The notes beneath the pieces were generated by a model that made no database searches, had not been told where the DNA came from, and worked only from the letters and a program-made list of their open reading frames with translations. Made by a program: the position numbers and the translations under genes. This document shows, piece by piece, positions 376-18,413 of a stretch of 20,475 bases of DNA. Numbering within the stretch: the stretch's first letter is position 1; each line of letters begins with the position of its first letter. The stretch spans positions 1-20,475 of the forward strand of contig CAZERV010000059.1 in the NCBI GenBank assembly GCA_964514815.1, written 5' to 3'. This DNA is from an uncultured Spirochaetaceae bacterium. Lineage in GTDB: Bacteria; Spirochaetota; Spirochaetia; SZUA-6; DRHE01.

Positions 376-1413
376 ATGGAAAAAAGGCGTGTTTCGGCAG
401 CGGATGTGGCCAAAAGAGCGGGTGTTTCGCGCACTACCGTATCTTTTGTTTTAAACAATACACCGGGAATGATTATCTCGGAAATGACCAGGCAGAGAGT
501 CCTGAAAGCTGTGGACGAGCTGGATTACCGGCCGAATGTATGGGCCCGAAACCTGGCCCTGACCAGGCGCCACTCCATCGGTCTCTTTATCTGTCATACC
601 GATTCCCTCTTTTCCGACGCCTATATCCTGAGCCTCATCCAGGGCATGTCAAAAATCCTCAACAAGCATCGCTTTCAACTGGTTCTTCAGCCTTTGAAGC
701 TCCGGCAGTTCAACTATCTTTCCCTGGCAGAGAAGGATAATGTGGACGGCATCATCCTGCTGAACACCCACGATAAAGATGAAGGTTTGGCTGAAATCAT
801 CGAAGCCGGCTTCCCGCTGGTTGTTATCGGAACCTTAGCGGATAAAAAGATCTTTCAGGTGGACATCGACAATTATTCAGCAGCCCGGCAGGTAATGAGC
901 TATCTTATAGGACTGGACCATCGAAGAATCGCTATGATCGTCCACGCGCCTCCTGTCTACTATGCCGCCCGGAAGAGGTTCCAGGGGTATAAAGATGCCC
1001 TCGATGAGGCGGGATTGGAGTACAGGGAGGCCATGATTGCGAACTTCACCGAAGAAAGCGGTTACAGGGCGATGAAAGAGCTTCTTTCCCTCACCGGTCG
1101 CCCCACCGCCTTGTTTGCCGGCAACGATATGATCGCCTATGGAGCCATTCAGGCAATCAAGGATGAGGGTTTGAATATACCGGAAGATCTGTCCATCGCC
1201 GGATTTGACGACGACTTTCTTTCCCGCTACCTGAATCCGCCCCTTACAACCATGTCCCTCCCGGCGCCCAGCCTGGGAGCAGAGGCAGCCAGGCTCCTGA
1301 TCGATCGGCTCTCAGGCAGGTTCACGGAGCAGAGGCAGATTCTGCTCTCACCGCATCTTTCGGTGCGCGAGAGCTGCCAGGCTTTGAACCGGCGGAGGTC
1401 CGCCGGTGGCTGA
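376..1413 (+). CDS. LacI-family transcriptional regulator
   Basis: N-terminal LacI HTH (VSAADVAKRAGVSRTTVSFVLNN) followed by a periplasmic-binding-protein-like sugar-binding core (IAMIVHAP...GYRAMKELL...FAGNDMIAYGAIQAIKDEG...SIAGFDD). It lies 23 bp downstream of the sugar permease. Confidence 0.9.
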   Translation: MEKRRVSAADVAKRAGVSRTTVSFVLNNTPGMIISEMTRQRVLKAVDELDYRPNVWARNLALTRRHSIGLFICHTDSLFSDAYILSLIQGMSKILNKHRFQLVLQPLKLRQFNYLSLAEKDNVDGIILLNTHDKDEGLAEIIEAGFPLVVIGTLADKKIFQVDIDNYSAARQVMSYLIGLDHRRIAMIVHAPPVYYAARKRFQGYKDALDEAGLEYREAMIANFTEESGYRAMKELLSLTGRPTALFAGNDMIAYGAIQAIKDEGLNIPEDLSIAGFDDDFLSRYLNPPLTTMSLPAPSLGAEAARLLIDRLSGRFTEQRQILLSPHLSVRESCQALNRRRSAGG

Positions 1414-4354: not shown

Positions 4355-4481
4355 CTATAGAAAGCTACAGCTTTTCAGGCAGCTAGGGGAATCAGCGGGG
4401 TTATGAGAGCCGGATTGCACAGCCTGCTTATTTCGTGATAATTTAATTAAGGAACTCTATAAAGTAAGGTTTGGCTTAATT

Positions 4482-5552
4482 ATGCGAAAGAAACTGGAAG
4501 AAATACTCGAGCGCTATCAGGAAGTGCAGCGGCAGGTTTCAGACCCGGTCATCCTTAAGGACCAGAAGCGTTACAAGGAGCTGATGCAGGAGAACGCCTT
4601 CCTGACCGAGATAGCCGATAAATATGAAGACTATAAAAAGATTGAGGAAGAAATGGCCGCTGCTCACGATCTTATTGAGGAAGCGGGGGATAATGAGATG
4701 CAGGACCTGGCCAGGGAAGAGCTTAAATACCTGGAAAAGAAGAGAGAAGAGCTTAATCAGAAGCTAAAAGTCCTCTTGATTCCCAAAGATCCCTTAGATT
4801 TAAAGAATATTATCATGGAGATCCGGGCCGGGACCGGTGGGGATGAGGCCGCCCTGTTCGCCGCGGACCTCTTTCGAATGTATTCTCACTTTGCCGAGGG
4901 AAAAAACTGGAAAGTCGAGATCCTGTCCGCCCAGGAGACCGAAATCAGGGGATTCAAGGAGATTTTCTTTTCGATTGCGGGAAAGAGTGTCTATGAAAGC
5001 CTTCGTTATGAGAGCGGGGTCCACCGGGTCCAGAGGGTGCCGGTCACCGAGTCCGGGGGCAGGATTCACACTTCGGCCGTGACGGTCGCCGTATTACCGG
5101 AGGCGGAAGCCACCGATGTGGAGATCAAGCAGGAGGACCTGCGCGTCGATGTTTACCGTTCATCCGGTCCGGGCGGCCAGAGCGTAAACACTACCGATTC
5201 GGCCGTGCGGATCAACCACCTTCCCACCGGATTGGTGGTCACCTGCCAGGATGAGAAGTCACAGCATAAGAACAAGGCCAAGGCGCTTCGCGTTCTCAGG
5301 GCCCGGCTCTACGAGCTGGAGGAGAGAAAGAGGCAGGAAGCCCGGGCGAAAGAAAGGAAGAGCCAGGTAGGAAGCGGCGACCGCTCCGAGCGGATCAGGA
5401 CCTATAACTTTCCCCAGAACCGGGTTACGGAGCACCGGACCGGCCTGACCCTTTACAGGCTCGAAGAAGTACTCCTCGGAACTTTGGATGAGATTATCTA
5501 CTCCTTAAAACTGAATGCCAGGGAGGAGTTCTTGAAATCGGGATCGTCATGA
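4482..5552 (+). CDS. prfA: Peptide chain release factor 1
   Basis: PCRF domain, RF1-type PxT tripeptide ([15 protein letters not shown]) and universal GGQ motif ([24 protein letters not shown]). 356 aa. Confidence 0.93.
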
Positions 5553-6391
5553 CCGTTCAGACCGTCCTGAGAGAGGGACAATCTATTCTTTTTTATGCGG
5601 AAGTGGAGACACCGGTATTGGATGCCACCGTTCTGCTGGCCGAAGCCCTGGAGGTCAGCAAGGAGAGGCTCCTCGCTTCCTTTCCCGATACTGTTGATGA
5701 AGGAGGCTACCGGAGATACCGCCGCCTGCTGGATTTAAGGTGTTCCGGACGGCCGGTTTCTTATATCAGGAAAAAAAAAGAGTTTTACAGCCTGGAGTTT
5801 TACGTGGATGAGCGGGTCCTGGTGCCCAGACCCGATACCGAGACCCTGGTTGATGAAGCCCTGGATCTGATCCGGGAAAATCCGGGGACGGTGAGATGTC
5901 ACGATCTCTGCACCGGCAGCGGCTGCCTGGCCATCACTCTTAAAGCTTGCCGGCCGGATTCGGAAATCTCAGCCTCTGATATATCTCCTGAGGCGGAAGA
6001 AGTTTTCAGGATTAACTGCGAAAATATTCTCGGCTTCCAGATTCCGTTTTATGTTTCCGATCTATTGGTCGATGTGCCGGACCGGTTCGACCTTATTGCC
6101 GCCAATCCCCCCTACCTGACCGACCGGGAAGTGGAAAACCTGAAAAAGATCGGCTGGCCGGAGCCTGCGCTGGCCCTGAAAGGGGGACCGGAAGGACTTT
6201 CTATAGCCCGGCGGCTGATTCGGCAGGCCCCGGAGAAATTGAGCGACCGGGGCGCCCTGATCCTGGAAGCCTCGCCCGGTCAAATAAAGTCCCTTACCGC
6301 CTTGCTGGAAGAAGCAGGATTTCGGGAAATTGCCGTCAGAAAAGACCTGGCCGGCAGGGAACGGGTGATCAGGGCAAGGATTCATAAATAA
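5549..6391 (+). CDS. prmC: Release factor glutamine N5-methyltransferase PrmC/HemK
   Basis: ATGA overlap with the prfA stop. SAM-binding motif ([11 protein letters not shown]) and catalytic NPPY motif (IAANPPYL). Conserved prfA-prmC synteny. Confidence 0.9.
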
Positions 6392-8406
6392 TGTCAGGAA
6401 TCAAGACCCGGGTTCACGAATTTGCGGAAAAACTAGAATTCTATGCTGTAGAAGAAAGAAAGAAGATCCTCTCCGCGGTCCGTTGGGCGGAAGGACTACA
6501 TCATAACCAGAAGAGAGCCAGCGGAGAGCCTTATATCATTCATCCCCTAAGCGTAGCGGAGACCCTGGTCCGGACCCGGATGGATTACCGGACCGTAATT
6601 GCCGGGCTCCTTCACGATGTGCTCGAGGACACGGGGATTACTCATAAGGAATTGCGCAAGGAATACGGCAGGGAAGTGGAAGCCCTGGTTCAGGGAGTGA
6701 CCAAGATCTCGATAATCCGGGGGATGAGCAAGTCCGTTCAGCAGGCGGAGACCATTCGCAAGATGCTCTTTGCCATGGTCAAAGATGTTCGTGTCATTCT
6801 GATCAAGCTGGCCGATAAGCTTCACAATATGCGCACCCTGGAGTACCTGGAAGAAGGCAACCGGAAAAGGATCGCTACCGAATGCCTGGAAATTTATGCC
6901 CCCCTGGCCGGGCGGCTGGGCATCTCCCGAATCAAGATTGAGTTGGAAGACCTCTCTCTCAAATATCTGAACCCCGAGGTCTTTGAACAGGTAAGAAGGT
7001 ATATAGCGGAGAAAAGGGATGATCGCAGTGATTTTCTCACCCGGCTGGAAGAAGGCATAACTAAAGAAGCAGGAAGGGCCGGCATCAAGATTGAGATCGA
7101 GACCAGGGCCAAGCACTTCTATTCTATCTATAAAAAGATGAAACGAAAGGGCAAGTTCCTGGATGAAATCTACGATCTATTCGGGGTGAGAATTCTCTGT
7201 GACACTCCGGGCCAGTGCTATGAGATTCTGGGTATCGTGCATAAGCTCTGGAAACCCCTGGAGGGCAGGTTTAAGGATTATATAGCCATGCCCAAGTCGA
7301 ACCGCTACCAGAGCCTTCACACCTCGGTAATGGGTTACGGGGGAAAAAGGATCGAGATCCAGATCCGGACCTACCTGATGCACCAGATGGCGGAGAACGG
7401 CATCGCGGCCCACTGGCTTTATAAAAGCGAGTTTGCCAGAGATTCCCTCAAGCCGGAACAGCTTACCGTCATCAACATGCTTAAGAACTGGTACGGGGAG
7501 AAGGGGGCCTCCGGCGAATTCCTGGAGGAGATCAAGCGGGAGCTCTTGAAAGATTCCATCTATGTGTTTACGCCTAAGGGAGATGTGATCGAGCTTCCCA
7601 AAGGGTCCACCGCCCTGGATTTCGCTTACCGCATTCATACGGAAGTTGGCAACCACTGTCTGGCCGCCAAGGCGGACGGGGTGCTGATTCAGCTCAAAGA
7701 GGAGCTCAAGAATACCCAGGTCATTGAGGTAATCACCTCCAATACGTCCCGGCCCCACCTGAACTGGCTGCGCTCTGTGCGAACCGCCTCGGCTCGCTCA
7801 AGGATAAGACACTGGCTGAATCAGCACGATGCCGATCTGTTTATTGACCGCAACATCGTAGCTAAAAAGAAAAGCGAAATCCCGGCGGCCAGACCCGTGC
7901 GAAAGAAAAAGGAACAGGAGCCGTCCCAACTATGGCAGGAAAAAAAGGTCCAGGATAAAACAAAGGTCGGCATAAGGATCGGCAATGAGCGAAACATGAT
8001 GATCCGGCTGGCTCAATGCTGTGAGCCGATATCCGGAGACGCCATTATCGGCTATGTTTCCCGGGGAAGGGGTATTATCGTCCATAAAGCCGACTGCCCG
8101 AATTTGAAATATATTAAGGATTTTTCCGAGCGCAGTATCGAAGTGGAGTGGGCGACCGTTTCTCCAAAGGCCACCCGCACTTTTCAGGTCACGGCCCGCC
8201 TCACTTCCAATCTCTTCTCCGAGATAGAAGGGGCGATCAGGAAGTTTAGGGGCCATCTGATCGAGGGAAAGCTGGAAGAAAGTAATCCTGAAACCCTGCA
8301 GGGCTTTTTTACGTTGGAATTGGAGAATATAGAAGACTTCGGGAAGGTACTAAAAAGTGTGAGAACGATTCCTTCGGTTACGAACATAAGGACAATGAGC
8401 TATTAA
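6391..8406 (+). CDS. rel: Bifunctional (p)ppGpp synthetase/hydrolase, RelA/SpoT family
   Basis: 1-nt overlap with the prmC stop. N-terminal HD hydrolase (HPLSVAETL...LLHDVLEDT), RelA_SpoT synthetase (YKKMKRKGKFLDEIYDLFGVRILC...YQSLHTSV), TGS (IYVFTPKGDVIELPKGSTALDFAYRIHTEVG), Cys-containing ZFD/RIS region (CCEP...GYVSRGRGIIVHKADCPN) and C-terminal ACT/RRM. At 671 aa it is shorter than typical, with a Lys-rich linker. Confidence 0.92.
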   Translation: MSGIKTRVHEFAEKLEFYAVEERKKILSAVRWAEGLHHNQKRASGEPYIIHPLSVAETLVRTRMDYRTVIAGLLHDVLEDTGITHKELRKEYGREVEALVQGVTKISIIRGMSKSVQQAETIRKMLFAMVKDVRVILIKLADKLHNMRTLEYLEEGNRKRIATECLEIYAPLAGRLGISRIKIELEDLSLKYLNPEVFEQVRRYIAEKRDDRSDFLTRLEEGITKEAGRAGIKIEIETRAKHFYSIYKKMKRKGKFLDEIYDLFGVRILCDTPGQCYEILGIVHKLWKPLEGRFKDYIAMPKSNRYQSLHTSVMGYGGKRIEIQIRTYLMHQMAENGIAAHWLYKSEFARDSLKPEQLTVINMLKNWYGEKGASGEFLEEIKRELLKDSIYVFTPKGDVIELPKGSTALDFAYRIHTEVGNHCLAAKADGVLIQLKEELKNTQVIEVITSNTSRPHLNWLRSVRTASARSRIRHWLNQHDADLFIDRNIVAKKKSEIPAARPVRKKKEQEPSQLWQEKKVQDKTKVGIRIGNERNMMIRLAQCCEPISGDAIIGYVSRGRGIIVHKADCPNLKYIKDFSERSIEVEWATVSPKATRTFQVTARLTSNLFSEIEGAIRKFRGHLIEGKLEESNPETLQGFFTLELENIEDFGKVLKSVRTIPSVTNIRTMSY

Positions 8407-8555
8407 GCTCCACTGCACTCGCCAGACAGCCAATGACTTAAAAAGCAATTGTAGCCAGTTTGAAATGGGAGGCTAAGGTTTCGAAGTGGTTATCCAGGTG
8501 GAGAATGGCGGCTTTATGCTTTCCGGCCGAGGCGGCGATAATGAGATCTAAAGCA

Positions 8556-8578
8556 GGTATGGTTATACCCTTTTTTAG
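8556..8578 (+). terminator. Weak candidate rho-independent terminator downstream of rel
   Basis: GGTAT-ggtt-ATACC hairpin (5-bp stem) followed by CTTTTTT. The stem is short and AT-rich, so the call is weak. It lies about 150 nt after the rel stop. Confidence 0.3.
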
Positions 8579-8666
8579 TTTTGGCGCCTCCTCATATCAC
8601 CACTAATATACACCAAAATGCTTATGCCGGTAACCCGCTTGCTACGGGTCGGCCAGAAAAAAAGTC

Positions 8667-8695
8667 TTGACAAAGTTGTACTAATGTACTAAATT
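8667..8695 (+). promoter_or_regulatory. Sigma70-like promoter for the GntR-SPFH-ABC operon
   Basis: Perfect -35 TTGACA (8667-8672), a 17-nt spacer, then TAAATT (8690-8695) as the -10. The AT-rich context is unique in this GC-rich window. It lies about 40 nt upstream of the GntR start. Confidence 0.55.
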
Positions 8696-8720
8696 ATTAT
8701 TGTATTAATACATTAATACA
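8677..8720 (+). promoter_or_regulatory. Candidate operator for the YtrA/GntR-family repressor: TGTAYTAA half-site array
   Basis: Tandem direct repeat TGTACTAA TGTACTAA (8677-8692) overlaps the spacer and -10. It is followed by the perfect 12-bp palindrome TGTATTAATACA (8701-8712) and an extra inverted half-site TTAATACA (8713-8720). This gives five TGTAYTAA-type half-sites in the arrangement -> -> -> <- <-. The GT...AC core fits the GntR-family operator style. Confidence 0.5.
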
Positions 8721-8734
8721 ACTTGGAGTGTAAG

Positions 8735-9157
8735 GTGGGACAAAGATTGGCTTTCAGCCTGGACCTGAAGAACGGGGTGCCCTTCTATAAACAGATCATC
8801 CTGCAGATCCAGATGGCCATGGCCGACGGCAGGCTCACGACGGGGGACCAACTCCCCACCGTGCGCAGCCTGGCGGTGGACCTCCAGGTAAATCCGAATA
8901 CGGTAGCCCGGGCCTACAGTGAGCTGGAGATCCGGGGGATAGTAAACACCCAACAGGGAACAGGCACCTTTATAAGCGATAAGAAGATAGAGCTTAACGA
9001 AGTGGAAAGAGAAAAGATTTTAGCCGAGATTTCCAGGACCTTCATAACGAGAGCTGCCTCATACGGTTTTACCATCGAAGAGATCACTCGTTACCTGGAT
9101 GAGCTCGACGGTAAAGAAGTTTCGTTCCGGGAGGAAGAAAATGTACTGGAAGGTTAA
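8735..9157 (+). CDS. GntR-family transcriptional regulator, YtrA-like short subfamily
   Basis: Winged HTH of the GntR family (PFYKQIILQIQMAMADGRLTTGDQLPTVRSLAVDLQVNPNTVARAYSELEIRGIVNTQQGTGTFIS) followed by a short, roughly 60-aa C-terminal tail, as in YtrA-type regulators that precede ABC transporter operons. The start is ambiguous: TTG 8723 (ORF track), GTG 8735 (GGAG at 8725-8728, 6-nt spacer) or TTG 8747 (AAGGTGGGA at 8732-8740). Confidence 0.85.
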   Translation: MGQRLAFSLDLKNGVPFYKQIILQIQMAMADGRLTTGDQLPTVRSLAVDLQVNPNTVARAYSELEIRGIVNTQQGTGTFISDKKIELNEVEREKILAEISRTFITRAASYGFTIEEITRYLDELDGKEVSFREEENVLEG

Positions 9158-10286
9158 ACCATTCGCGGCCATCAAAAACGTCCAGAAGCCGGAGATCCTA
9201 AAGGACTTCCGGATGAATCCGCCGGCTCTGCTCGTGCTGGCTTTATTTCTGGCCGGCGGTATCATCTGGCAGTTCTCAGTAACCTACGAGATCGATTCGC
9301 TGGACCTGGTCAAAGTAGCCGGAGGAACCATCGTAAGCGGTTTCCTTCTTTTGCTCATTCCCCTGTGGGGCCTGGTCCTGGCCCTTATCGCGGGTTTCTG
9401 GATCAACCTGCTGGCCCTGTTTACCTTTGATTTTTACCCCCTCTTCCTGATGGTCAGCCTGGGCCTGCTGTTCTCTCCCTGCGTGCAGATAGCCCACCAA
9501 TGGGAAAAAGCGATAATTTTAAGACTGGGTAAGTTTCGCAAGCTGAAGGGACCGGGGATTTTTCTCATTTTTCCATTGCTCGACCGGGTGACCCGTTATG
9601 TGGATACCCGGATTCGGGCCACCGATTTCAGTGCCGAGAAAACCATTACCATAGATACGGTCCCCGTTCATGTGGACGCCCTGGCCTTCTGGATGATCTG
9701 GGATGCCAGGAAGGCGGTATTGGAAGTGGAGAATTTTATCGAAGCGGTGGTGCTTTCCGCCCAGGCCGCCCTCCGCGATTCCATAGGCAGGCATGAGCTG
9801 GCCGACCTTCTCTCCGAGCGGGAGCGCCTGGGCAGGGAGATTCAGCAAGCCCTGGACAGGAAGACCAATCCCTGGGGAATCAGCATTCTCTCTATCGAGA
9901 TCACGGATATCATCATCCCGAAAGAGCTGGAGAACGCCATGTCCAAGCGCGCCCAGGCCGAGCGGGAGAGACAGTCCCGGGTAATCCTGGGCACGGCCGA
10001 GGTTGAGATCTCGGAGAAGTTCGTGCAGGCGGCCGAGCGCTACAAGGACAATCCCACCGCGCTTCATCTGCGGGCCATGAACATGATCTTCGAAGGGATA
10101 AAGCAGAACGGAACCATCGTTCTTTTGCCGGCCCCGGCCCTCTCGACCATGTCCCTGGGTGGCATGCTCGATGACCTGGCCCACGGAAAGATGCCTGAAA
10201 TCATGGAAGGAAAGAATGATAAAAATGAGCCCGGAGCGAAGGCGGAAGGTAAAATAGAAAAGGAGAAGGAAGATGATCAAAGTTGA
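9141..10286 (+). CDS. SPFH/band-7 (stomatin/prohibitin-like) membrane protein with a polytopic N-terminal extension and an acidic/lysine-rich C-terminal tail
   Basis: SPFH core begins around HQWEKAIILRLGKFRKLKGPGIFLIFPLLDRV and continues through the coiled-coil region (ELENAMSKRAQAERERQSRVILGTAEVEIS). It is preceded by about 110 aa containing 3-4 hydrophobic helices. Preferred start is ATG 9141 (GGGAGGAAG at 9129-9137), which overlaps the GntR stop by 17 nt. The ORF track starts at 9099. ATG 9213 (AAAGGA upstream) and ATG 9450 are alternatives. Confidence 0.82.
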   Translation: MYWKVKPFAAIKNVQKPEILKDFRMNPPALLVLALFLAGGIIWQFSVTYEIDSLDLVKVAGGTIVSGFLLLLIPLWGLVLALIAGFWINLLALFTFDFYPLFLMVSLGLLFSPCVQIAHQWEKAIILRLGKFRKLKGPGIFLIFPLLDRVTRYVDTRIRATDFSAEKTITIDTVPVHVDALAFWMIWDARKAVLEVENFIEAVVLSAQAALRDSIGRHELADLLSERERLGREIQQALDRKTNPWGISILSIEITDIIIPKELENAMSKRAQAERERQSRVILGTAEVEISEKFVQAAERYKDNPTALHLRAMNMIFEGIKQNGTIVLLPAPALSTMSLGGMLDDLAHGKMPEIMEGKNDKNEPGAKAEGKIEKEKEDDQS

Positions 10287-10959
10287 AGGAGTTACCAAGG
10301 ATTACCATGTGGGTGCAACAGTCGTTCATGCCTTGAGGGGAGTTTCTCTCGAGGTTGAGCAGGGAGAGTTTATCTCCATAGCCGGGCCCTCCGGCTCGGG
10401 CAAAACGACCTTGCTCAACTTGATCGGCTGTCTGGACAAATGCACGGCCGGGGAGGTCATCATCGATGATGAGCCTGTGGCGGAGAAAAATAGAAAGGAG
10501 CTGGCGCTGCTAAGGAGGAAGAAGCTGGGATTCGTCTTCCAAACCTTCAACCTCATCCCCGTGCTCAAGGCCAACGAGAATGTTTCATTTGCGCTCTTTC
10601 TCCTCGGTCTTCCCCAGGCGGAGGTCACGGAAAGGACGATGGCTATCCTGGAGGAAGTAGGCCTCAAAGGAATGGAGGATCGATTTCCCCGGGAGCTTTC
10701 CGGGGGGCAGCAGCAGCGCGTGGCTGTAGCACGGGCCCTGGTCAAAGACCCTGCAATTGTACTGGCCGATGAGCCCACGGCCAATCTCGACTCTACAACC
10801 GGAGAAGAGATCCTGCACCTGATGCAGGCGCTGAATGAGAAAAACGGCACAACCTTCGTTTTTTCCACCCATGACCCAATGGTGATGGACCATGCCGGGA
10901 GACTCGTCCAGCTCCATGACGGCCTAATCACGGCAGACGAGAGGAGGCAAAAAAAATGA
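10273..10959 (+). CDS. ABC transporter ATP-binding protein, MacB/LolD family
   Basis: Walker A GPSGSGKTT, Q-loop, ABC signature LSGGQQQRVAVARAL, Walker B ILADEPT, H-loop FSTHD. About 228 aa, typical LolD/MacB-NBD size. Overlaps the SPFH gene by 14 nt. Confidence 0.93.
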   Translation: MIKVEGVTKDYHVGATVVHALRGVSLEVEQGEFISIAGPSGSGKTTLLNLIGCLDKCTAGEVIIDDEPVAEKNRKELALLRRKKLGFVFQTFNLIPVLKANENVSFALFLLGLPQAEVTERTMAILEEVGLKGMEDRFPRELSGGQQQRVAVARALVKDPAIVLADEPTANLDSTTGEEILHLMQALNEKNGTTFVFSTHDPMVMDHAGRLVQLHDGLITADERRQKK

Positions 10960-12194
10960 GATTCATCCTGGATCTGGCCTGGAAGAACCTTTCCCGGCAC
11001 AGGCGGAGAACAATGATCACCGCCGCCGCTATTGCCTTTGGCATCGCCATCTTTATCTGGATGGATGCCTTTCTCCTGGGAATGGAGAAGGACTCCGAGC
11101 GGAATCTGATCTGGTACGAGACGGGATCGGCCAAGATCATGAACAGGGAATACTGGGAAAAGATCGACAACCTTCTCGTAAAGCATGCTATTGACGATCC
11201 CGCCGGTGTGATAAACCGGCTCGAGCTGGGAAACGTAAAGCACACCCAGAGAATCGTATTTGGGGGAGAGCTCTTCTTCGGAGAGGGCTCTCTGCCGGCC
11301 AAGCTGATTGCCATAGATCCGAGCACAGACCGGCAGGTGTTCCGGCTGGAAGAGTCTATCGTCGAGGGAGGAAGGTATCTTGCCCAGGACCAAGCGGAAA
11401 TCCTGATCGGCCAGTGGCTGGCCAGAGACCTGGGGGCCGAGCCTGGTGATGTCGTAGAAATACGAACCAGGACAAGACACGGCGCCATGCAGACCATGGA
11501 GCTGGAGATCGTAGGCATCCTCAACTGCCCTAATCCGATCATCAACAAGGGTACCGGCTTTCTGCCGATCTCTGTTGCCCGGTACGACCTGGACATGGAG
11601 GGGGCAGTCACGGAGATCGTGCTGAGCCTTCCCGGAGGGGCCAGGGTAGGCGAAGAGGTCAGCCGGATCAACGAGACGCTGGCCTCCTCTTTCCCCGGAC
11701 TCACCGCGCTGACCTGGCAGGAGCTGGCCACGGATTTTATCGCCATGGCGGAGATGAAATCCAAAGGCTCGGGCATGTTCATATTCCTTATATTAGTGAT
11801 TGCCGCGGTGGGCATCTCCAACACCATGCTCATTGCAGTTTACGAAAGGTTCCGGGAGATCGGCATGATGAGGGCCCTGGGCATGAAGGAATCATCCATC
11901 CGCCTGGCCTTTCTGCTGGAGGCCGGCGGGATAGGCCTGCTGGGTTCCCTGGTGGGACTCGTCCTGGGTTCCCTGGCCACCTACTGGATCGTCAACTGGG
12001 GCATCGACTACACTAATCTCTTAGGCGACATGGACATAGGCTACAGGATCAAGGGTGTATTCCGGGGGGCGTGGCACCCCGAGGCCATGGTGTCGGCCGT
12101 CTTTTTCGGCACCCTGATCAGCATGACAGTCGCGCTCCTTCCCGCATCGAGAGCGTTGAAGATGAAGATCTCCGACTGCCTCAGGCACGAGTAA
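10956..12194 (+). CDS. ABC transporter permease, FtsX/MacB-type (LolC/LolE-like architecture)
   Basis: N-terminal TM (RRRTMITAAAIAFGIAIFIWM), a periplasmic domain of about 220 aa, and a C-terminal FtsX domain with the signature ERFREIGMMRALGMKESSIRLAFLLEAGGIGLLGSLVG plus 3 TM. ATGA overlap with the ATPase gene. Confidence 0.9.
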   Translation: MRFILDLAWKNLSRHRRRTMITAAAIAFGIAIFIWMDAFLLGMEKDSERNLIWYETGSAKIMNREYWEKIDNLLVKHAIDDPAGVINRLELGNVKHTQRIVFGGELFFGEGSLPAKLIAIDPSTDRQVFRLEESIVEGGRYLAQDQAEILIGQWLARDLGAEPGDVVEIRTRTRHGAMQTMELEIVGILNCPNPIINKGTGFLPISVARYDLDMEGAVTEIVLSLPGGARVGEEVSRINETLASSFPGLTALTWQELATDFIAMAEMKSKGSGMFIFLILVIAAVGISNTMLIAVYERFREIGMMRALGMKESSIRLAFLLEAGGIGLLGSLVGLVLGSLATYWIVNWGIDYTNLLGDMDIGYRIKGVFRGAWHPEAMVSAVFFGTLISMTVALLPASRALKMKISDCLRHE

Positions 12195-12221
12195 ATGCTT
12201 TAATATAGAAAGGAGTAAAAG

Positions 12222-13544
12222 ATGAAACTTGCCGCCATCGCTTTCCGAAATATCGCACGAAACAGGAGAAGATCCCTTCTCTCCGGCGCCGCGATAACCC
12301 TGGCTACCCTGGCCATCGCTTTTGTATTCTCGTATATCGGGGGGATCAAGGTGGATCTGGCTAAAAACGCCTTCATCTACGACAGCGGCCAGATCAGGCT
12401 GAGAAACAGAGAATATGACAGGTATGAGACTCTCAATCCTCTTCACCTGGGGGTTTCAGACTACCGGAGCGTGGTATCCAGCCTTGAAACTCAAGAAAAC
12501 GTGGCGCTCGTTCTTCCCCGCATCCGGTTCTTTTCCGCCATATACCGGGAGGAGATCAACTACAGGGGGATGGGCCTGGGCATCGATTTTGCCAGGGAGA
12601 TTCTTCTTGACAAAAAGGCAGCGGGAAAAGATCTGGCCGAAACGAGCTACCGACAGATGGATCAAAGGCAGAAGTTGGAAGCCTTTGCCTCTGCATGGGG
12701 CCTGGCTGGGTTTGAGGGGGAGCTGCCGGAGGAGGGCAAGAGGCAGGTCCTGCTCTCTTCCGGCCTGGCCGAAGAGATGAACGTGGATGTAGGGGACAAG
12801 GTGACCTTCTACACCAAGACGGCCTACCTGGGTATGCAGGCCTGGACGTTTCTGGTTACCGGCCTTATCCGCTTTCCTATCGCGGGAATGAACCGGAGTT
12901 TTTTCCTGGCGCCCCTCGGTTCTGTTCAGAGATTCCTCAAGATGGATGCCGTAGGCAACTCCGTTTCGGAGGTGCTGGTTCATCTAAAGGATCTGGACAG
13001 GCTCGATGAGACAGCCCTCAGCATTCTCGACATTTTGAGCGCTAAAGGATTCGAGGATCTGGCCGTTCAGCCCTGGACTGAGATAGGAATATCGTATGCC
13101 TGGATGGAACTGGCGGAGCAGATATACAACATCGTAGCCCTCTTCTTCTTCATCCTGGGCAGTACCGTGATAATCAACACTACCATGATGGTCATCTTCG
13201 AGCGCATGAAGGAGATCGGGACAATCGCGGCCATGGGCATGACGGGCGGGGAGATCATGAAGCTCTTTTTCCTCGAGGCTTTTTTCATCAGCCTGATAGC
13301 GGCCTTCATCGGCGTCGCCCTGGGCGCCGGGATCACGATTCTCCTCTCCATCTATGGAATTGACTTAGGTGAAGCGATGAGCGGCACGGACTTCCCCATG
13401 TCCCCCGTTCTTTATCCCATTCTCAGTATACGTTCCACCGTATTCGTTTTCTTCTACTCGGTCGCCGTTGCCTCGCTGGCCTCGTTTCTGCCTACCCGCA
13501 AGGCGGCCAGGATCGAGCCGGTGGAGGCGCTGAGATCCCTGTAA
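12222..13544 (+). CDS. Second ABC transporter permease, FtsX/MacB-type (LolE/LolC-like), non-identical paralogue
   Basis: Same architecture: NRRRSLLSGAAITLATLAIAF TM, a large periplasmic domain, and the FtsX signature ERMKEIGTIAAMGMTGGEIMKLFFLEAFFISL plus 3 TM. RBS AAAGGAG 7 nt upstream. It is clearly diverged from the first permease, implying a heterodimeric permease as in LolCDE. Confidence 0.9.
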   Translation: MKLAAIAFRNIARNRRRSLLSGAAITLATLAIAFVFSYIGGIKVDLAKNAFIYDSGQIRLRNREYDRYETLNPLHLGVSDYRSVVSSLETQENVALVLPRIRFFSAIYREEINYRGMGLGIDFAREILLDKKAAGKDLAETSYRQMDQRQKLEAFASAWGLAGFEGELPEEGKRQVLLSSGLAEEMNVDVGDKVTFYTKTAYLGMQAWTFLVTGLIRFPIAGMNRSFFLAPLGSVQRFLKMDAVGNSVSEVLVHLKDLDRLDETALSILDILSAKGFEDLAVQPWTEIGISYAWMELAEQIYNIVALFFFILGSTVIINTTMMVIFERMKEIGTIAAMGMTGGEIMKLFFLEAFFISLIAAFIGVALGAGITILLSIYGIDLGEAMSGTDFPMSPVLYPILSIRSTVFVFFYSVAVASLASFLPTRKAARIEPVEALRSL

Positions 13545-13567
13545 ACCCTATTGAAAGGAGCAAGACT

Positions 13568-14314
13568 TTGAAAAGGAAGTGCATAAAAAGCGCGATTATC
13601 TGCATCATTCTTCTCTCTCTGGCAGCCTACTCGTTCGCCCTGACCGGAGAAGAGATCATAAAAAAAATGGAGGGCAACCAGGTCCACAAAACCTCTAAGG
13701 CCACCGGTTCCATGGCGATAACAGACCGTTTCGGGACCAGGATAAAGACGTACAAGGTCTTTTCCGAAGGGGACGACAGGATGCTGCTGGAGTTCACCAA
13801 TCCTGAGGAAGAAGGACAGAAGATCCTGCGCATCGACGATGAAATCTATCTCTACTTTCCAGAAGCCGAGGAGATCATCCATCTCCAGGGTGCCGCCCTG
13901 AAAGACAGCGTCATGGGGTCCGATTTTTCCTATGAAGATCTGACGGGCGGCAAGGGACTGCTCGATTCCTACAGGGTGGAGCTGGAGGGAAACGAAATCG
14001 TGGACGGGCAAGACTGCTACAGGCTCAAGCTGGAAGCCAGGACGCGGGAGGTGGTGTATCCGCTGGAGCGGGTTTGGGTGGACAGGCGGTTGTTCGTCTA
14101 CAGGAAAGTGGTGCTGTATTCTCTTAGAGGCAAGCCCGTCAAGGAGATGAATATAATCGATTTCCGGCAAGTATCCGGCAAAAACGTTCCCGTGCAGATG
14201 GAAATGAGAGACCTGATGAAGAAAAACTCGAAAACCGTATTCAAGACCGATAGCATCGAGATCGATATTCCTCTGGATCCCTCTCTCTTTTCCCTGGAGG
14301 AGCTTTCGTGGTAA
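13568..14314 (+). CDS. Periplasmic LolA-like outer-membrane lipoprotein-sorting-family protein
   Basis: TTG start with AAAGGAG 8 nt upstream. Signal peptide (KSAIICIILLSLAAYSFA|LTGEE) with no lipobox Cys. The body resembles the LolA_like outer-membrane lipoprotein-sorting protein family as I recall it, including a GSDFSYEDL motif and alternating beta pattern: ITDRFGTRIKTYKVFSEGDDRMLLEFTNPEEEGQKILRIDDEIYLYFPE. Confidence 0.75.
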   Translation: MKRKCIKSAIICIILLSLAAYSFALTGEEIIKKMEGNQVHKTSKATGSMAITDRFGTRIKTYKVFSEGDDRMLLEFTNPEEEGQKILRIDDEIYLYFPEAEEIIHLQGAALKDSVMGSDFSYEDLTGGKGLLDSYRVELEGNEIVDGQDCYRLKLEARTREVVYPLERVWVDRRLFVYRKVVLYSLRGKPVKEMNIIDFRQVSGKNVPVQMEMRDLMKKNSKTVFKTDSIEIDIPLDPSLFSLEELSW

Positions 14315-15420
14315 CCGGAAACGTCAGAAGAGCCGCCGGCTTGCTGGCGGCTCTCTTTATCTTAGCTCCGATGCTCTACGCAGAGCTTTCCACAACGGCG
14401 AAGGTGAGCGGTACGACCGCAGTGCTGCACGAGGAAGCGGGGCAATTCTCTTTACTGTCCTTCGGGCAGGGAAGGCTGGACTTCAAATCTTTCGGGAACC
14501 GGAACGTGAAGGGGCAGTTTCAACTGGATGCCCTGATTTCCGATGATATCGTATTTGATGTTCCCAGGGCGTACCTGAAGGTTCGCTTTCCTTTTTTCAG
14601 GGTAACCCTGGGCAAGACGCGGGTTTCCTGGGGAGAGGGCTTCCTCTTCAATGCGGGGGATGTCATCTTTAGCGGCATGTCTCTCCTGGGCAATCTCACA
14701 GCCGCAGAGCTCAGGGATGAGACCGATTGGATGCTGGTGCCCTATCTCCCCCTGGGTACGTTCTCCTATATCGAGGGGGTACTCCTGCCGCACCCGACCG
14801 GAACAGGTCCGCCCGTGTCGATAAAGCTGCACGAGGTGGATGCCGGGATTCGGGTCCAGACCAAGCTGGTGGGGCACAAGCTGGAGGCGGGGTATCTATA
14901 CAGCGGAAGCAATGGGAACCATCGTCCCTACGTGAGTGTCAAGGGAAATCTCCTCAACATCGACTGGCACCTCTCGAGCGCTCTCAGCATACCGGTGGTG
15001 AAACCGGATGAGGAAGACCTGAAAAAGGGATGGGATATCTCCTTCGGCCTCTTCCGGATGGTTAGCCTTCCGGCCGGTCCTTCGCTGCTCTTCAGGCTGG
15101 AATCGGGCATCAATCCCTTCGGACACTGGGAAGAGATCCATCCCTCCCCCGCAGACGCAGATTACGGAATATACCTTTACCCGGAAGTTTCCCTCTCTCC
15201 CAGCGATGCGGCCTCGATTTTCCTGCGCACCATCATCTCTCCGGTGGACCTTTCCGCTCTAATGTCTACAGGCCTTAGCTGGAATATCTATCAAGGCTTC
15301 ACCATGCATTTCTTCTTCGCTTTTCTCATGGGGGACGGCGATGACCACTTCAGTTGGGGCAAAACGGGGGATCTATCCTTCACTACTAAGCTGGAGTACG
15401 TGTATGGAACGAGCAGATAA
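14308..15420 (+). CDS. Secreted hypothetical protein, beta-strand-rich; candidate outer-membrane beta-barrel
   Basis: GTG start overlaps the previous stop (GGAGGAG RBS). Signal peptide AAGLLAALFILAPMLYA|ELS. About 340 aa mature, with many alternating hydrophobic/polar dyads (RVTLGKTRVSWGEGFLFNAG, GYLYSGSNGNHRPYVSVKGNLLNIDWHL, LSFTTKLEYVYG) typical of transmembrane beta-strands. I recognise no family. Confidence 0.7.
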   Translation: MVTGNVRRAAGLLAALFILAPMLYAELSTTAKVSGTTAVLHEEAGQFSLLSFGQGRLDFKSFGNRNVKGQFQLDALISDDIVFDVPRAYLKVRFPFFRVTLGKTRVSWGEGFLFNAGDVIFSGMSLLGNLTAAELRDETDWMLVPYLPLGTFSYIEGVLLPHPTGTGPPVSIKLHEVDAGIRVQTKLVGHKLEAGYLYSGSNGNHRPYVSVKGNLLNIDWHLSSALSIPVVKPDEEDLKKGWDISFGLFRMVSLPAGPSLLFRLESGINPFGHWEEIHPSPADADYGIYLYPEVSLSPSDAASIFLRTIISPVDLSALMSTGLSWNIYQGFTMHFFFAFLMGDGDDHFSWGKTGDLSFTTKLEYVYGTSR

Positions 15421-15781: not shown

Positions 15782-17083
15782 ATGATAGATTTTGCGCTTT
15801 CACTCCCCGTGCTGGTCAAGGTATTCGGCAGCCTGGCCGTTATTCTGATTTTAAACCGTTTTTTAAAAAACCTTTTGATTTCAGCCACAGCGGGCACTGT
15901 TATCCTGGGGCTCTGGACCGGTCATTTCGGGGGTGAGTTTGTAGATATTGCCTGGAAACGATTTTCCTCCCCCGACAATCTCCTGCTCATGACCGTTGTG
16001 TTACTGGTGATCTGGTTGAGCTCCCAGATGACCCGGAGCGGGGTGATGCAGGACCTGGTTCGGGTGGTCCAGGCCCGCATCCCCAGGCGCCTGGCTATTG
16101 CCGTCCTTCCCGCGGTCATCGGCTTTTTACCCATGCCAGGGGGAGCCATTTTCTCGGCCCCTTTAGTGGATAGCTGCGATCGGGAGAAGCGTCTATCCGG
16201 CCTTCTAAAGACTCAGACCAACTACTGGTTCCGCCATGTCTGGGAATATTGGTGGCCCCTCTATCCGGGCGTGCTCCTGACCACCGCCCTGACCGGTTTG
16301 GAGATCTGGCAGTTCATCCTCCTGCAGATCCCGGTATCCATGCTGGCGATAGCCAGCGGGTACTGGTTCCTGCTGAGGCGCGTCCCCAGGGAAGGCAACA
16401 GCGGTGAAACCGCCGTCCGGGAGACGGGACAATCGTTCTGGGCCTTAATCGCCCCTATCCTGGTGGTAATCGGTTCCTACCTGCTGATTCGAATTTTTCT
16501 GCCGGTTGTGGCTGAAATCAATAAATACCTGCCCATGATGATCGGGGTTCTGGCGGCGATGATTTTTCTCCAGGCCCGGAGAAAGATAGACGGCGCCGGC
16601 TGGAAAACAATCCTGCTTTCAAAAAGAGCCTTTTTATTGGCCGTGCTCATTGCGGTTATCCGCATCTATGCCGCGTTTATAGAAGCTCCCCTACCTTCGG
16701 GCATATTGCTGGTAGAGCAAATGCGCCTGGAGCTGAGCAGGTTTGGCATTCCTCTTCTGGCCGTGATGGCCCTGGTCCCCTTTTTAAGCGGAGTGGCCAT
16801 GGGTCTGACCGTGGGAGTGGTGGGTGCCAGCCTGCCGATCGTTCTGAGCCTGATCGGACGGGACCCTTCCCTGGGCAAGCTGCTGTCCGTAACCGTGCTC
16901 GCCTACGGCTGTGGATTCATGGGCCAAATGTTTTCTCCGGTCCATGTCTGCATCCTGGTGACCACCGATTACTTTAAGACTCGGGTGTTTCGCAGCCTGG
17001 TAAGCCTGCTCAGGCCGGCCGGGGTTGTTCTTCTTGGGATAATCATCCTCAGCCTGGGTATCGAGCGGCTCTGGCCCGGGTAG
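15782..17083 (+). CDS. Polytopic membrane protein, DUF401 / ion-transporter-superfamily-like, with internal two-fold repeat
   Basis: About 12 predicted TM segments. GG-containing re-entrant-loop-like motifs appear in both halves (LPAVIGFLPMPGGAIFSAPLVDS versus PFLSGVAMGLTVGVVGASLPIVLS...FSPVHVC). RBS AAGGA 5 nt upstream. Family assignment is from memory and tentative. Confidence 0.7.
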   Translation: MIDFALSLPVLVKVFGSLAVILILNRFLKNLLISATAGTVILGLWTGHFGGEFVDIAWKRFSSPDNLLLMTVVLLVIWLSSQMTRSGVMQDLVRVVQARIPRRLAIAVLPAVIGFLPMPGGAIFSAPLVDSCDREKRLSGLLKTQTNYWFRHVWEYWWPLYPGVLLTTALTGLEIWQFILLQIPVSMLAIASGYWFLLRRVPREGNSGETAVRETGQSFWALIAPILVVIGSYLLIRIFLPVVAEINKYLPMMIGVLAAMIFLQARRKIDGAGWKTILLSKRAFLLAVLIAVIRIYAAFIEAPLPSGILLVEQMRLELSRFGIPLLAVMALVPFLSGVAMGLTVGVVGASLPIVLSLIGRDPSLGKLLSVTVLAYGCGFMGQMFSPVHVCILVTTDYFKTRVFRSLVSLLRPAGVVLLGIIILSLGIERLWPG

Positions 17084-17087
17084 AAGG

Positions 17088-18413
17088 ATGAAAAATATAA
17101 CGGTCAATTCTCTGACCCTGGGAAAGGTTTTCTGGTTCTGGCTTCCCCTGGCGGCCATGTGGCTGATGATGGGGATCGAGCATCCCATAATCACCGCTTT
17201 GATAGCCAGGCTTCCGGACCCGGAGCAGAACCTGGCTGCTTTTGGGATAACCTTCTCGATGGCCCTGATTATCGAAAGTCCGATCATTATGCTGCTGACC
17301 GCAGCCACCGCCCTGGCTTATAACAGGGGAGATTACCGGCTCCTGCTGGTCTTCACCCATATCATGGCTTTAAGTTTGACAGCTCTGCACCTCCTGATCG
17401 TTCTGACCCCCGCCTACAGGATAATAGTTGGTAGATTTATCGGGGTTCCTCCGGAGATTATTGAACCGAGCCGCATTGCCTTTCTGTTGATGGCGCCCTG
17501 GTCGGCGGCCATCGCCTACCGTCGTCTCTGGCAGGGAGTCCTGATCCGCTTCAAGCGGACCGGGGTGGTCCCGCTTACAATCCTCTCCCGGTTCCTGACG
17601 AGCATGATCGTCTTAGCCCTGGGTTTTCGCCGGGGCAGGGTTCCGGGAGCCTACATAGGGGCTGCGGCCTTGAGCCTGGGGGTAATTGCCGCCGCCTTTA
17701 CCGCCTACGGTTTCAGCCGGCCGGTAGTGAGGTCTCATTTAAGCTCCGGGGCCGAGGCTGAAGAGCCTTTGACCTGGCCAAGACTTCTCGAGTTCTACCT
17801 GCCCCTGGCCCTCACTATGCTCTTGACCATGGCTGCCCAGCCGATCCTATCCATCGGTCTGGCCCGGGCGCCCGAGCCCCTGGCTTCTCTCGCCATCTGG
17901 CCGGTGGTAATGGGGGCGCTTTTTATCATCCGCTCACTCGGCATTTCCTATCAGGAGGTAGTGGTAGCTCTGCTCGCCGATGCCGGGAGCTTTAGTGTTT
18001 TACGGCGCTTTACCCGCCGGCTGGGACTGAGCCTGGCCGGAATCCTGGCCCTTTTCGCGTTCAGTCCTCTTTCAGGATTCTGGTTTACTAAGGTAGCCGG
18101 GCTTTCGGCGAAGCTGGCCGATTTTACCGTGCTTCCCATGATGGTTTTGGCCGTTGTCCCGGGATTGGAATCCCTGCTCTCCTGGCTGCGGGGTTTCCTG
18201 GTTCACAAGGCACGGACCAGGATAATTTCGCAGGCCGTGGGGCTCAACTTGCTGGTTCTGGCGGTGGTGATGCTGGGCGGAGCCGCCGTGCTGCCCATCG
18301 GGGGCGCCGGCACTGCCGCCATAGCCCTGACCTTCGCCCTGACCCTGGAATGTCTCTTTTTGTGGCTGCGTATCGGAGCCGTGGGGGGTGAGTTGTTTGG
18401 AAAGCGTTTATAA
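17088..18413 (+). CDS. Polytopic membrane protein with clear internal duplication, MOP/MATE-flippase-superfamily-like
   Basis: The N-half motif (WFWLPLAAMWLMMGIEHPIITALIARLPDPEQNLAAFGI) is repeated in the C-half (EFYLPLALTMLLTMAAQPILSIGLARAPEPLASLAIWPV). About 12 TM. Starts 4 nt after the preceding stop, so it is probably co-transcribed. Confidence 0.65.
   Translation: MKNITVNSLTLGKVFWFWLPLAAMWLMMGIEHPIITALIARLPDPEQNLAAFGITFSMALIIESPIIMLLTAATALAYNRGDYRLLLVFTHIMALSLTALHLLIVLTPAYRIIVGRFIGVPPEIIEPSRIAFLLMAPWSAAIAYRRLWQGVLIRFKRTGVVPLTILSRFLTSMIVLALGFRRGRVPGAYIGAAALSLGVIAAAFTAYGFSRPVVRSHLSSGAEAEEPLTWPRLLEFYLPLALTMLLTMAAQPILSIGLARAPEPLASLAIWPVVMGALFIIRSLGISYQEVVVALLADAGSFSVLRRFTRRLGLSLAGILALFAFSPLSGFWFTKVAGLSAKLADFTVLPMMVLAVVPGLESLLSWLRGFLVHKARTRIISQAVGLNLLVLAVVMLGGAAVLPIGGAGTAAIALTFALTLECLFLWLRIGAVGGELFGKRL

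Follow-up and report, generated by a model that had tools for sequence, protein, structure and literature searches.

A spirochaete gene array combining an ABC transporter of type VII, a LolA-superfamily protein and a predicted outer-membrane barrel: comparison with known cassettes and a candidate role in envelope export

Closest described systems and the seven-gene locus

The closest analogues of the locus described here are cassettes in which an inner-membrane pump is encoded together with a protein of the LolA superfamily and a barrel of the DUF1302 type. Our locus consists of seven genes (g1 to g7) in a 20,475-nucleotide (nt) stretch of DNA, hereafter "the window," from an uncultured Spirochaetaceae bacterium (contig CAZERV010000059.1, assembly GCA_964514815.1). 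On balance, we read it as a repressor-controlled accessory system for the trans-envelope export of hydrophobic or amphipathic cargo.

Only one relative has been studied experimentally. This is AmeABCD of Castellaniella defragrans, in which an HAE3 RND pump is joined by a BNR protein, a LolA-like protein of the DUF1329 family, and a barrel of the DUF1302 family; deletion mutants tolerate monoterpenes less well and accumulate more Nile Red (PMC6394551). Cofitness ties DUF1302, DUF1329, BNR, and RND genes together, and export of an envelope or cell-wall component was suggested for them by Price et al. (bioRxiv 10.1101/072470). Pseudomonas putida DUF1302/DUF1329 mutants show nutritional defects on fatty esters (bioRxiv 10.1101/2020.07.04.188060). 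Structure prediction makes DUF1302 a barrel of 18 strands whose neighbours are AlgE/Occ-like, and AF-multimer (AlphaFold-Multimer) pairs it with DUF1329 at an ipTM of 0.84 (PMC13499233).

In the Bacteroidota, the Prevotella nigrescens operon runs TetR, two ABC proteins, MMPL, PF17131 (the LolA-like family to which g6 belongs), and DUF1302. Porphyromonas gingivalis PG1175-81 has the same make-up, one member (PG1178) being called a porin; iron limitation induces the cluster 13- to 136-fold, and it is also up in a hemH mutant growing in the absence of haem (PMC10434189, PMC13096392). Like our locus, these operons place a PF17131 gene before a barrel gene, carry a local repressor, and encode uncharacterised transporters; unlike it, they use an MMPL/RND pump and respond to iron or haem limitation.

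Among spirochaetes, Treponema pallidum TP0789, the namesake of PF17131, is abundant and has been described as a structural homologue of LolA (PMC10600179; PMC5015957). One might be tempted to take TP0786-0788 as a MacB-type transporter beside it, but this would be wrong: TP0784-0786 are LptC/A/B and TP0790 is of RND type (PMC8407342). In Borrelia, a computational study interpreted BBJ26-28 (ATPase, permease, LolA-like protein) as a Lol-like exporter that works together with BBJ25, a protein of Omp85 type (PMC13078400).

The elements of our locus are listed below, with positions counted from the first letter of the window and protein lengths in amino acids (aa).

8667 to 8695, plus strand: predicted sigma-70-type promoter (-35 TTGACA at 8667-8672, 17-nt spacer, -10 TAAATT at 8690-8695)
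8676 to 8721, no strand assigned: putative GntR operator region (a palindrome and two half-sites, read from the sequence)
8735 to 9157, plus strand: g1, YtrA-type GntR-family repressor, ~140 aa (GTG at 8735 after GGAG; other starts TTG 8723 and TTG 8747)
9141 to 10286, plus strand: g2, stomatin/slipin-type SPFH membrane protein with a Band_7 domain, 381 aa (alternative start 9099)
10273 to 10959, plus strand: g3, ABC ATPase of the LolD/DevA/FtsE/MacB-NBD (nucleotide-binding domain) group, ABC_tran, 228 aa
10956 to 12194, plus strand: g4, type VII MacB/LolCE-type ABC permease 1, FtsX and MacB_PCD, 412 aa
12222 to 13544, plus strand: g5, type VII ABC permease 2, a g4 paralogue, FtsX and MacB_PCD, 440 aa
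13568 to 14314, plus strand: g6, secreted soluble LolA-superfamily protein, PF17131 LolA_like/TP_0789-like, 248 aa
14308 to 15420, plus strand: g7, secreted, predicted 18-stranded outer-membrane beta-barrel, no Pfam family (structure model), 370 aa

From g1 to g7, the junctions are overlaps of 17, 14, and 4 nt, gaps of 27 and 23 nt, and an overlap of 7 nt. An independent ENA gene call on the 53-kb metagenomic source scaffold (ERZ23499938) gives the same genes and agrees with the shorter g2 start at 9141, which has GGAGGA in front of it, and approximately with the shorter g1 start. A previous reading of this DNA, made from the sequence only, had reported seven co-directional, overlapping or near-overlapping genes; all seven open reading frames do lie on the plus strand, and their Pfam content matches. 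They lie in an operon-like array behind a single predicted promoter. Calling this a seven-gene operon captures the array itself, but what it really represents is a five-gene core (g3-g7) with an exchangeable regulator head.

Compared with AmeABCD and other DUF1302 cassettes, the locus likewise co-encodes an energised inner-membrane pump, a LolA-superfamily protein, and a predicted 18-strand Occ/AlgE-like barrel. Inducibility, predicted for our locus, is a common trait, and export of apolar compounds or an envelope component has been proposed for such cassettes. The differences are equally clear. The engine here is a heterodimeric type VII ABC transporter rather than an RND pump; the carrier belongs to PF17131 rather than DUF1329; neither an RND domain nor a BNR/Ycf48-like protein is present in the module; and the regulators are GntR plus slipin or TetR, where theirs are LuxR/AraC. 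The sequence-only reading knew of no characterised system with this exact composition. Literally that is true, but close architectural analogues had already been described: the composition is undescribed, and the design principle is already recognised in Pseudomonadota, Bacteroidota, and Borrelia, though poorly understood.

Pump, periplasmic protein and predicted barrel

The ATPase g3 matches ABC_tran (E 3.1e-34), and its translation contains a Walker A motif (GPSGSGKT), a signature (LSGGQQQR), and a Walker B motif (LADEPT). Both permeases carry the FtsX and MacB_PCD domains (PF02687 and PF12704), with E-values of 1.2e-19 and 2.3e-8 for g4 and 6.1e-18 and 3e-6 for g5. They are paralogues (24% identity over the full length, E 3e-31), each with the four-transmembrane (four-TM) type VII topology and a periplasmic domain. 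Pfam content, identity, and topology bear out the idea of one ATPase serving two non-identical permeases. Among solved structures, g4 is nearest to Bacillus subtilis YtrF (2e-13), LolF (8.5e-13), and LolE (9e-11), and g5 to LolE (1.8e-10), the Streptococcus pneumoniae ABC permease 5xu1, LolC, and MacB; the matches of the two permeases to solved relatives span E 1e-5 to 1e-13 only.

The stoichiometry had also been taken as a hallmark of LolCDE, and here we disagree. The MacB transporter of T. pallidum is heterodimeric as well (TP0962/TP0963 with TP0964; PMC8407342), and g3-g5 fall far below the Lol cut-offs. Against the LolD model (TIGR02211), g3 scores 211.6 bits where 307.75 are needed, and its scores for LolD, DevA (210.6), FtsE (207.1), and the MacB NBD are nearly equal, with those for LolD, DevA, and FtsE all under cut-off. 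Against lolCE (TIGR02212), g4 and g5 reach 84.8 and 92.1 bits, with a cut-off of 362. Because every Lol equivalog score is far below its cut-off, we reject a canonical LolCDE/LolA system; g6 is, in addition, not a member of the LolA family proper. A MacAB-TolC system was rejected because, although the FtsX permease and MacB core domains are present in g4 and g5, there is no MacA/HlyD adaptor or TolC-type outer-membrane factor.

Should the locus nonetheless be regarded as a Lol pathway, housekeeping or paralogous, in which g3-g5 act as LolCDE for triacylated lipoproteins, g6 acts as LolA, and g7 replaces LolB? We find this very improbable. It is true that one ATPase is combined with two distinct permeases, that among NCBIfam models TIGR02212 matches best and covers g4 from end to end, that the nearest solved relatives include LolE and LolF, and that g6 falls within the LolA superfamily; spirochaetes also have no LolB, and Borrelia BBJ26-28 have been read in the same way (PMC13078400). 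Beside the bit scores and the restriction of g6 to PF17131, however, a dedicated GntR or TetR repressor would be odd for an essential pathway, and one genome (Candidatus Marispirochaeta associata JC231, discussed below) has two copies. PF17131 proteins elsewhere pair with MMPL/RND pumps, which handle no lipoproteins; T. pallidum TP0789 is numbered beside the RND-type TP0790 (PMC8407342, PMC10600179), and Borrelia has a separate LolA, BB0346, besides BBJ28 (PMC13078400).

What the locus shares with Escherichia coli LolCDE-LolA-LolB is the type VII architecture, with one ATPase, two different four-TM permeases bearing periplasmic domains, and a LolA-superfamily protein. It departs from that pathway in its equivalog scores and its PF17131 carrier, in having a predicted integral barrel as outer-membrane partner in place of the lipoprotein LolB, and in the co-encoding of all parts under a repressor. 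Judged from the module loci, the earlier suggestion of an accessory module rather than housekeeping Lol is supported.

The candidate carrier g6 matches PF17131 with E 7e-50 and 169.7 bits (gathering threshold 30) over profile positions 1-183 of 184. A Pfam scan at E<=0.01 returned PF17131 LolA_like only, and there was no NCBIfam match. Phmmer matches to solved LolA-superfamily structures (9tp6, 3buu, 4z48, and 3bk5) range from 1e-13 to 4e-8, so that the LolA-like fold proposed from the sequence was upheld at superfamily level, with the correction that the family is the TP_0789-like PF17131. The protein is probably soluble and periplasmic, because g6 and its orthologues have signal peptides of the signal-peptidase-I type (…SA|ITAEE…), and a lipobox cysteine is not conserved among them. 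In this it is unlike TP0789, a predicted lipoprotein (PMC5015957).

PF17131 proteins stand outside the standard Lol pathway and adjoin energised pumps and barrels. In the literature and in the loci we inspected, their neighbours across bacteria are MMPL/RND or MacB-type pumps with DUF1302-type barrels (PMC10434189); apart from Prevotella, an example is Haliovirga, with TetR, MMPL, and PF17131.

For g7, the evidence comes from structure prediction. An AlphaFold2 model built on a 30-sequence alignment gives a barrel of ~18 strands (pLDDT 85.6, pTM 0.76) behind a signal peptide at the N-terminus, and Foldseek returns AlgE, ChiP, and Occ at a TM-score of ~0.55, the closest neighbours including Occ/OprD, ChiP, and maltoporin. 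The AlgE and Occ pattern at ~0.55 is that reported for DUF1302 (PMC13499233). The sequence-only reading had put forward a secreted, putative outer-membrane barrel, and model, Foldseek matches, and signal peptide all agree with that prediction. Neither of the refuting outcomes named in that reading, a g6 without a LolA fold or a g7 unlike a barrel, came about.

By sequence, g7 has no Pfam match and its family no Pfam model; a profile search of PDB sequences found nothing, and tblastn against plasmids gave no match. Weak matches to Pfam Caps_assemb_Wzi occur in 14 of 30 family members (best E 4.9e-4). When 1.84 billion representatives were searched with a hidden Markov model (HMM), the result was a closed set of 377 clusters at E<=1e-3; the barrel family that g7 founds is unannotated.

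The g6 stop overlaps the g7 start by 7 nt, and in roughly twelve orthologous loci the tblastn matches of the two genes touch or overlap, an arrangement that fits a stoichiometric pair. Within the first 50 nt of g7 after the g6 stop, at 14329-14354, there is a strong hairpin with an 11-bp stem, eight G-C pairs, and a folding free energy of about -22 kcal/mol; a T-rich tract comes next, and the structure might dampen expression of the barrel. A comparably stable hairpin is found in ~11 of 67 orthologous loci (median -12.4) and the feature is not conserved.

Since the nearest structural neighbours of g7, namely Occ/OprD, ChiP, and maltoporin, are uptake channels, one may ask whether the system takes up a hydrophobic nutrient, with g7 as entry channel, g6 as periplasmic binding or shuttle protein, and the ABC transporter as importer. 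The fatty-ester defects of the P. putida mutants (bioRxiv 10.1101/2020.07.04.188060) and the induction of the analogous Bacteroidota cassettes by iron or haem starvation (PMC10434189, PMC13096392) point the same way. We give this idea little credence: neither a classical substrate-binding protein nor catabolic genes are linked to the module. Moreover, we know of no type VII (FtsX/MacB-type) ABC transporter that imports.

How close is g7 to the barrels of other cassettes? The partners encoded in the PF17131 cassettes described here all have an "lGRQ.isWG" motif at the relative position of "LGKTRVSWGEGF" in g7. No significant sequence match was found between g7 and PF06980 (DUF1302), and homology to DUF1302 or to the Burkholderia or Persicobacter partner could not be demonstrated, with hhalign not significant and the short motif all that aligns. 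The equivalence of g7 to these barrels is best described as architectural, judging from fold and gene order.

The two plasmid cassettes just named, from Burkholderia thailandensis and Persicobacter, are uncharacterised and resemble our module in joining a MacB-type ABC transporter to PF17131 and a ~380-aa secreted partner, a putative barrel whose homology to g7 is not demonstrable by sequence. The Persicobacter plasmid encodes TetR, a secreted protein of 378 aa, an ATPase, a pair of FtsX permeases, and PF17131, and with its two separate permeases and TetR it is like the TetR-type spirochaete loci described below. Both cassettes are without GntR or SPFH genes, and their order differs: the barrel or secreted partner comes first in Persicobacter, and PF17131 in Burkholderia, where the permease is a fused double FtsX.

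Closer in taxonomy is the Borrelia burgdorferi lp38 locus BBJ23-BBJ29 (PMC13078400), which has ATPase, FtsX-type permease, LolA-like protein, and a protein of unknown function in the same order and is regulated. It differs in its single homodimeric permease, the Omp85-type BBJ25, two tetratricopeptide repeat (TPR) proteins, and the lack of a repressor or SPFH gene, and the study in question is computational only. In our module, g7 is not of the Omp85 type, and the combination of an Omp85 barrel with a TPR chaperone is not found. BBJ28 has no detectable sequence similarity to g6.

A further observation concerns BBJ29 (locus L077, lp38 22007-23008; "unknown function" in PMC13078400), which directly follows BBJ28 and is thus the positional equivalent of g7. 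In hhalign, only the region with the "F.F.lGRQ..G.G" motif, which BBJ29 has in common with g7 and DUF1302-type barrels, aligns, and not significantly (E 0.58). BBJ29 may be a degenerate partner barrel.

Regulation and conservation in Spirochaetota

The predicted promoter matches the sigma-70 consensus at 10 of 12 positions in a consensus scan; promoter-like sites turn up in this region no more often than in shuffled sequence, and the match alone is weak evidence. Its comparative context is more telling. The layout cTTGACA...TAnAnT, together with a palindromic operator, is kept upstream of 35 g1 genes (the window and 34 orthologous loci). In the window, the perfect palindrome TTGTATTAAT-AC-ATTAATACAA lies at 8700-8721, directly 3' of the -10 element, and two more TGTACTA half-sites, at 8677-8683 and 8685-8691, fall within the promoter spacer and the -10 element.

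Of 36 loci, 34 have the pattern TGTAYTA-N5-8-TRRTACA no further than 250 nt upstream of g1, and it has no match elsewhere in the 994 kb of DNA from the spirochaete loci. This conservation at the promoter is strong comparative evidence in support of autorepression by g1 through promoter occlusion. The repressor site had been pointed out from the sequence alone, and a conserved, still putative, operator is indeed what the comparison recovers there.

g1 itself matches Pfam GntR (E 1.2e-16, residues 22-84); its best NCBIfam matches, the Rv1152 family (4.9e-23) and PmtR (9.6e-16), are both under cut-off. Some 55 aa follow the winged helix-turn-helix, with neither an effector domain nor a second domain, a layout that fits the YtrA subfamily, whose regulators lack a ligand domain. 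Orthologues are 65-82% identical, making g1 the most conserved protein of the set.

The nearest regulatory analogue is ytrGABCDEF of B. subtilis (PMC12772383, PMC8060467). There, too, a YtrA-type GntR autorepressor heads an ABC operon with an FtsX-type permease, the gene of a small or accessory membrane protein sits beside the repressor, and the response is linked to the envelope; YtrF is also the best g4 match in the PDB. Expression of the YtrA-repressed operon responds to lipid II cycle inhibitors and cold (PMC12772383). The differences are those of a Gram-positive organism, namely no periplasmic carrier or outer-membrane barrel, along with two ATPases, different permease types, and no SPFH protein.

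With this kinship in mind, the ABC unit might transmit force without transporting anything, as FtsEX or YtrEF do, so that an ATP-driven conformational change in g6 and g7 gates a porin, activates an envelope enzyme, or senses or neutralises antimicrobial peptides. Type VII proteins such as FtsEX do act without moving a substrate across the membrane, and the YtrF match of g4, the match of g5 to 5xu1, the YtrA-type regulator, and the resemblance of g7 to substrate-specific Occ/OprD channels would all be in keeping with such a role. We consider it quite improbable. A LolA-fold carrier with a lipid cavity most simply handles cargo, the PF17131 and barrel pair is driven elsewhere by RND/MMPL proteins, which are true transporters, and the phenotypes of AmeABCD are of the efflux type (PMC6394551).

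The second gene of the array, g2, is a clear Band_7 protein (PF01145, E 2.5e-35, 122.6 bits). Phmmer against the PDB retrieves human stomatin (1.4e-37), PH1511 stomatin, and QmcA (6e-27), and the NCBI name for its orthologues is "slipin family protein." The alignment with stomatin begins in the last hydrophobic segment of g2; hydropathy shows two extra segments N-terminal to the stomatin-type membrane hairpin, and the label "polytopic SPFH" is accordingly roughly right. An NfeD domain, the operon partner one might look for, was not found in the seven proteins or in the flanking genes scanned. The homologue search for g2 returned close spirochaete orthologues only and is uninformative on GntR-SPFH pairs outside the module.

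How widespread is the module? Relatives of the window genes all come from genomes and metagenome-assembled genomes (MAGs) of Spirochaetota. A scan of one genome per species yielded 70 loci with g7 relatives, all from Spirochaetota, although it used peptide patterns from close relatives and does not prove absence outside that phylum. Carriers include Marispirochaeta, Salinispira, Sphaerochaeta, Thalassospirochaeta, and many MAGs, and the module is conserved in free-living spirochaetes. Wherever at least 4.3 kb of upstream DNA was available (52 loci), g3-g4-g5-g6 stand directly upstream of g7 on the same strand, 52 times out of 52, so that the neighbourhood is conserved as a syntenic five-gene core.

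The regulators are another matter. GntR and SPFH genes are present in 31 of the 46 loci with enough DNA and both are missing from 14; in one further locus they are hidden by a masked run of N. At least eight of the 14 have a TetR-family gene directly upstream of the ATPase, and Pfam confirmed TetR_N on four of these upstream genes. The module is thus a five-gene core (g3-g7) with an exchangeable regulator, either GntR plus slipin or TetR.

g2 accompanies g1 in every locus where both could be scored, and, because other spirochaetes have TetR in place of both GntR and SPFH, the slipin is co-inherited with GntR and not with the transporter. This constant pairing suggests that the slipin has a part in signal sensing or pump organisation.

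Three loci deserve separate mention. In L065, at ~3680-3800, a tRNA-like sequence adjoins a 100-N masked run at the expected GntR position, where g1 consequently went undetected. Candidatus M. associata JC231 (loci L035 and L057) has two copies of the five-gene core, one with GntR and slipin and the other with neither and no TetR detected upstream. In L034, two tandem g4-like permeases (50% and 49% identity to g4) precede the g5 orthologue at 3787-6504, an arrangement that would give a three-permease version of the module.

In the loci inspected, the module has no biosynthetic, modifying, or catabolic genes linked to it, and its flanking genes vary. This bears on the possibility that the system is dedicated to the biogenesis of some component of the cell's own envelope, for example a glycolipid, a lipoprotein of the surface, or a lipid of the outer membrane, and builds or remodels the outer membrane under stress. 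The hardware would be the same as for our export reading. SPFH proteins organise membrane microdomains, and the 18-strand relatives AlgE and Wzi serve polymer export and capsule anchoring. DUF1302/DUF1329/RND clusters have been proposed to export a cell-wall component (bioRxiv 10.1101/072470), and YtrA-type control in B. subtilis is tied to the status of cell-envelope precursors (PMC12772383). We nonetheless think such a role unlikely, given the lack of linked enzymes, the varying flanks, and the recovery of the module from a subset of Spirochaetota only. The TetR-type regulators of the sister loci count against it too, as proteins of this type usually sense small-molecule ligands.

For completeness, we record what surrounds the array in the window. 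Upstream, 376-4354 contains a LacI-family regulator and, after it, a 982-aa protein that fuses a GH65 glycoside phosphorylase to a HAD (beta-phosphoglucomutase-like) domain; the pair is unrelated to the module. The 260 nt from the relA/spoT stop to the module promoter (8407-8666) are non-coding, with no Rfam match and no annotated feature, and the Rfam search of the window as a whole returned no RNA family. No convincing intrinsic terminator was found 3' of g7. Further downstream, a DUF401 gene (15782-17083) is followed after 4 nt by the gene of a 441-aa polytopic membrane protein (17088-18413) with ~12-14 hydrophobic segments and no Pfam match; this pair recurs in the closest relatives only. 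PADLOC gave generic ABC/LolE-TM matches and no defence system.

Proposed function and what it would mean

If our export reading is correct, the parts would span the envelope from the inner membrane through the periplasm to the outer membrane, as was suggested from the sequence and as seems plausible. A g3 dimer would power g4/g5 as a type VII "mechanotransmission" ABC transporter, which would pick up its cargo in the outer leaflet of the inner membrane or in the periplasm and pass it into the hydrophobic cavity of g6. This carrier may shuttle to the g7 barrel or dock on it, and the cargo would then be released into or across the outer membrane. The logic would be that of the DUF1302 barrel/DUF1329/RND cassettes (AmeABCD), with an ABC engine substituting for the RND pump. 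Promoter occlusion by g1 would keep the operon repressed until an envelope or amphiphile signal relieves it, and the slipin g2 could be a membrane scaffold or cage that organises the pump or relays the signal to g1, which has no ligand domain of its own.

As to cargo, we favour inducible efflux of toxic lipophilic compounds or surplus membrane amphiphiles over dedicated biosynthetic export, because there are no linked biosynthetic genes, the flanks vary, and TetR-type repressors replace GntR.

Several points weigh against this reading. Transport direction and cargo are deduced from family behaviour only. The link to AmeABCD-type systems stands on fold class, motif, and gene order, with barrel homology unproven; hhalign of the g7 family against the Burkholderia family gives a probability of 1.4%, with only a motif of ~60 residues aligned. 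The SPFH protein is absent from TetR-type loci and is therefore not required for transport. YtrBCDEF, the nearest regulatory analogue, was not shown to protect B. subtilis against antibiotics (PMC12772383), and the nutritional phenotypes on fatty esters in P. putida (bioRxiv 10.1101/2020.07.04.188060) mean that efflux is not the only reading of DUF1302/DUF1329 systems.

A more speculative extension, distinctly unlikely in our judgement, is that g6 and g7 form a spirochaete-specific, LolB-independent route of delivery to the outer membrane. A Lol-like extractor would hand lipoproteins or glycolipids to the PF17131 carrier, the 18-strand barrel would insert them or flip them to the surface, and the slipin g2 would be an HflK/C-like cage around the ABC complex whose state is read by g1. 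If true, this would amount to an envelope-remodelling circuit gated by membrane stress.

Returning to the export reading, on present evidence the module is not a categorically new mechanism. Its interest lies elsewhere. The transfer of hydrophobic molecules across the diderm periplasm without a TolC duct is only partly understood, and spirochaetes have many surface lipids and lipoproteins and no LolB, which leaves the question of how the periplasm is crossed open there. The module brings together an ABC motor of type VII, a protein of LolA fold, and its own dedicated barrel from an unannotated family of ~377 clusters, and it indicates that the design of pump, LolA-like protein, and 18-strand barrel is independent of the engine, RND or ABC, and extends across phyla.

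The highly conserved operator and the obligate GntR-slipin pair provide a regulatory handle. With modular regulators and an ABC transporter where relatives use RND, they make this a clean comparative system, testable in culturable relatives such as Marispirochaeta. The module also gives a context for T. pallidum TP0789 and Borrelia BBJ26-29, and with it a lead on lipid and lipoprotein traffic in spirochaetes.

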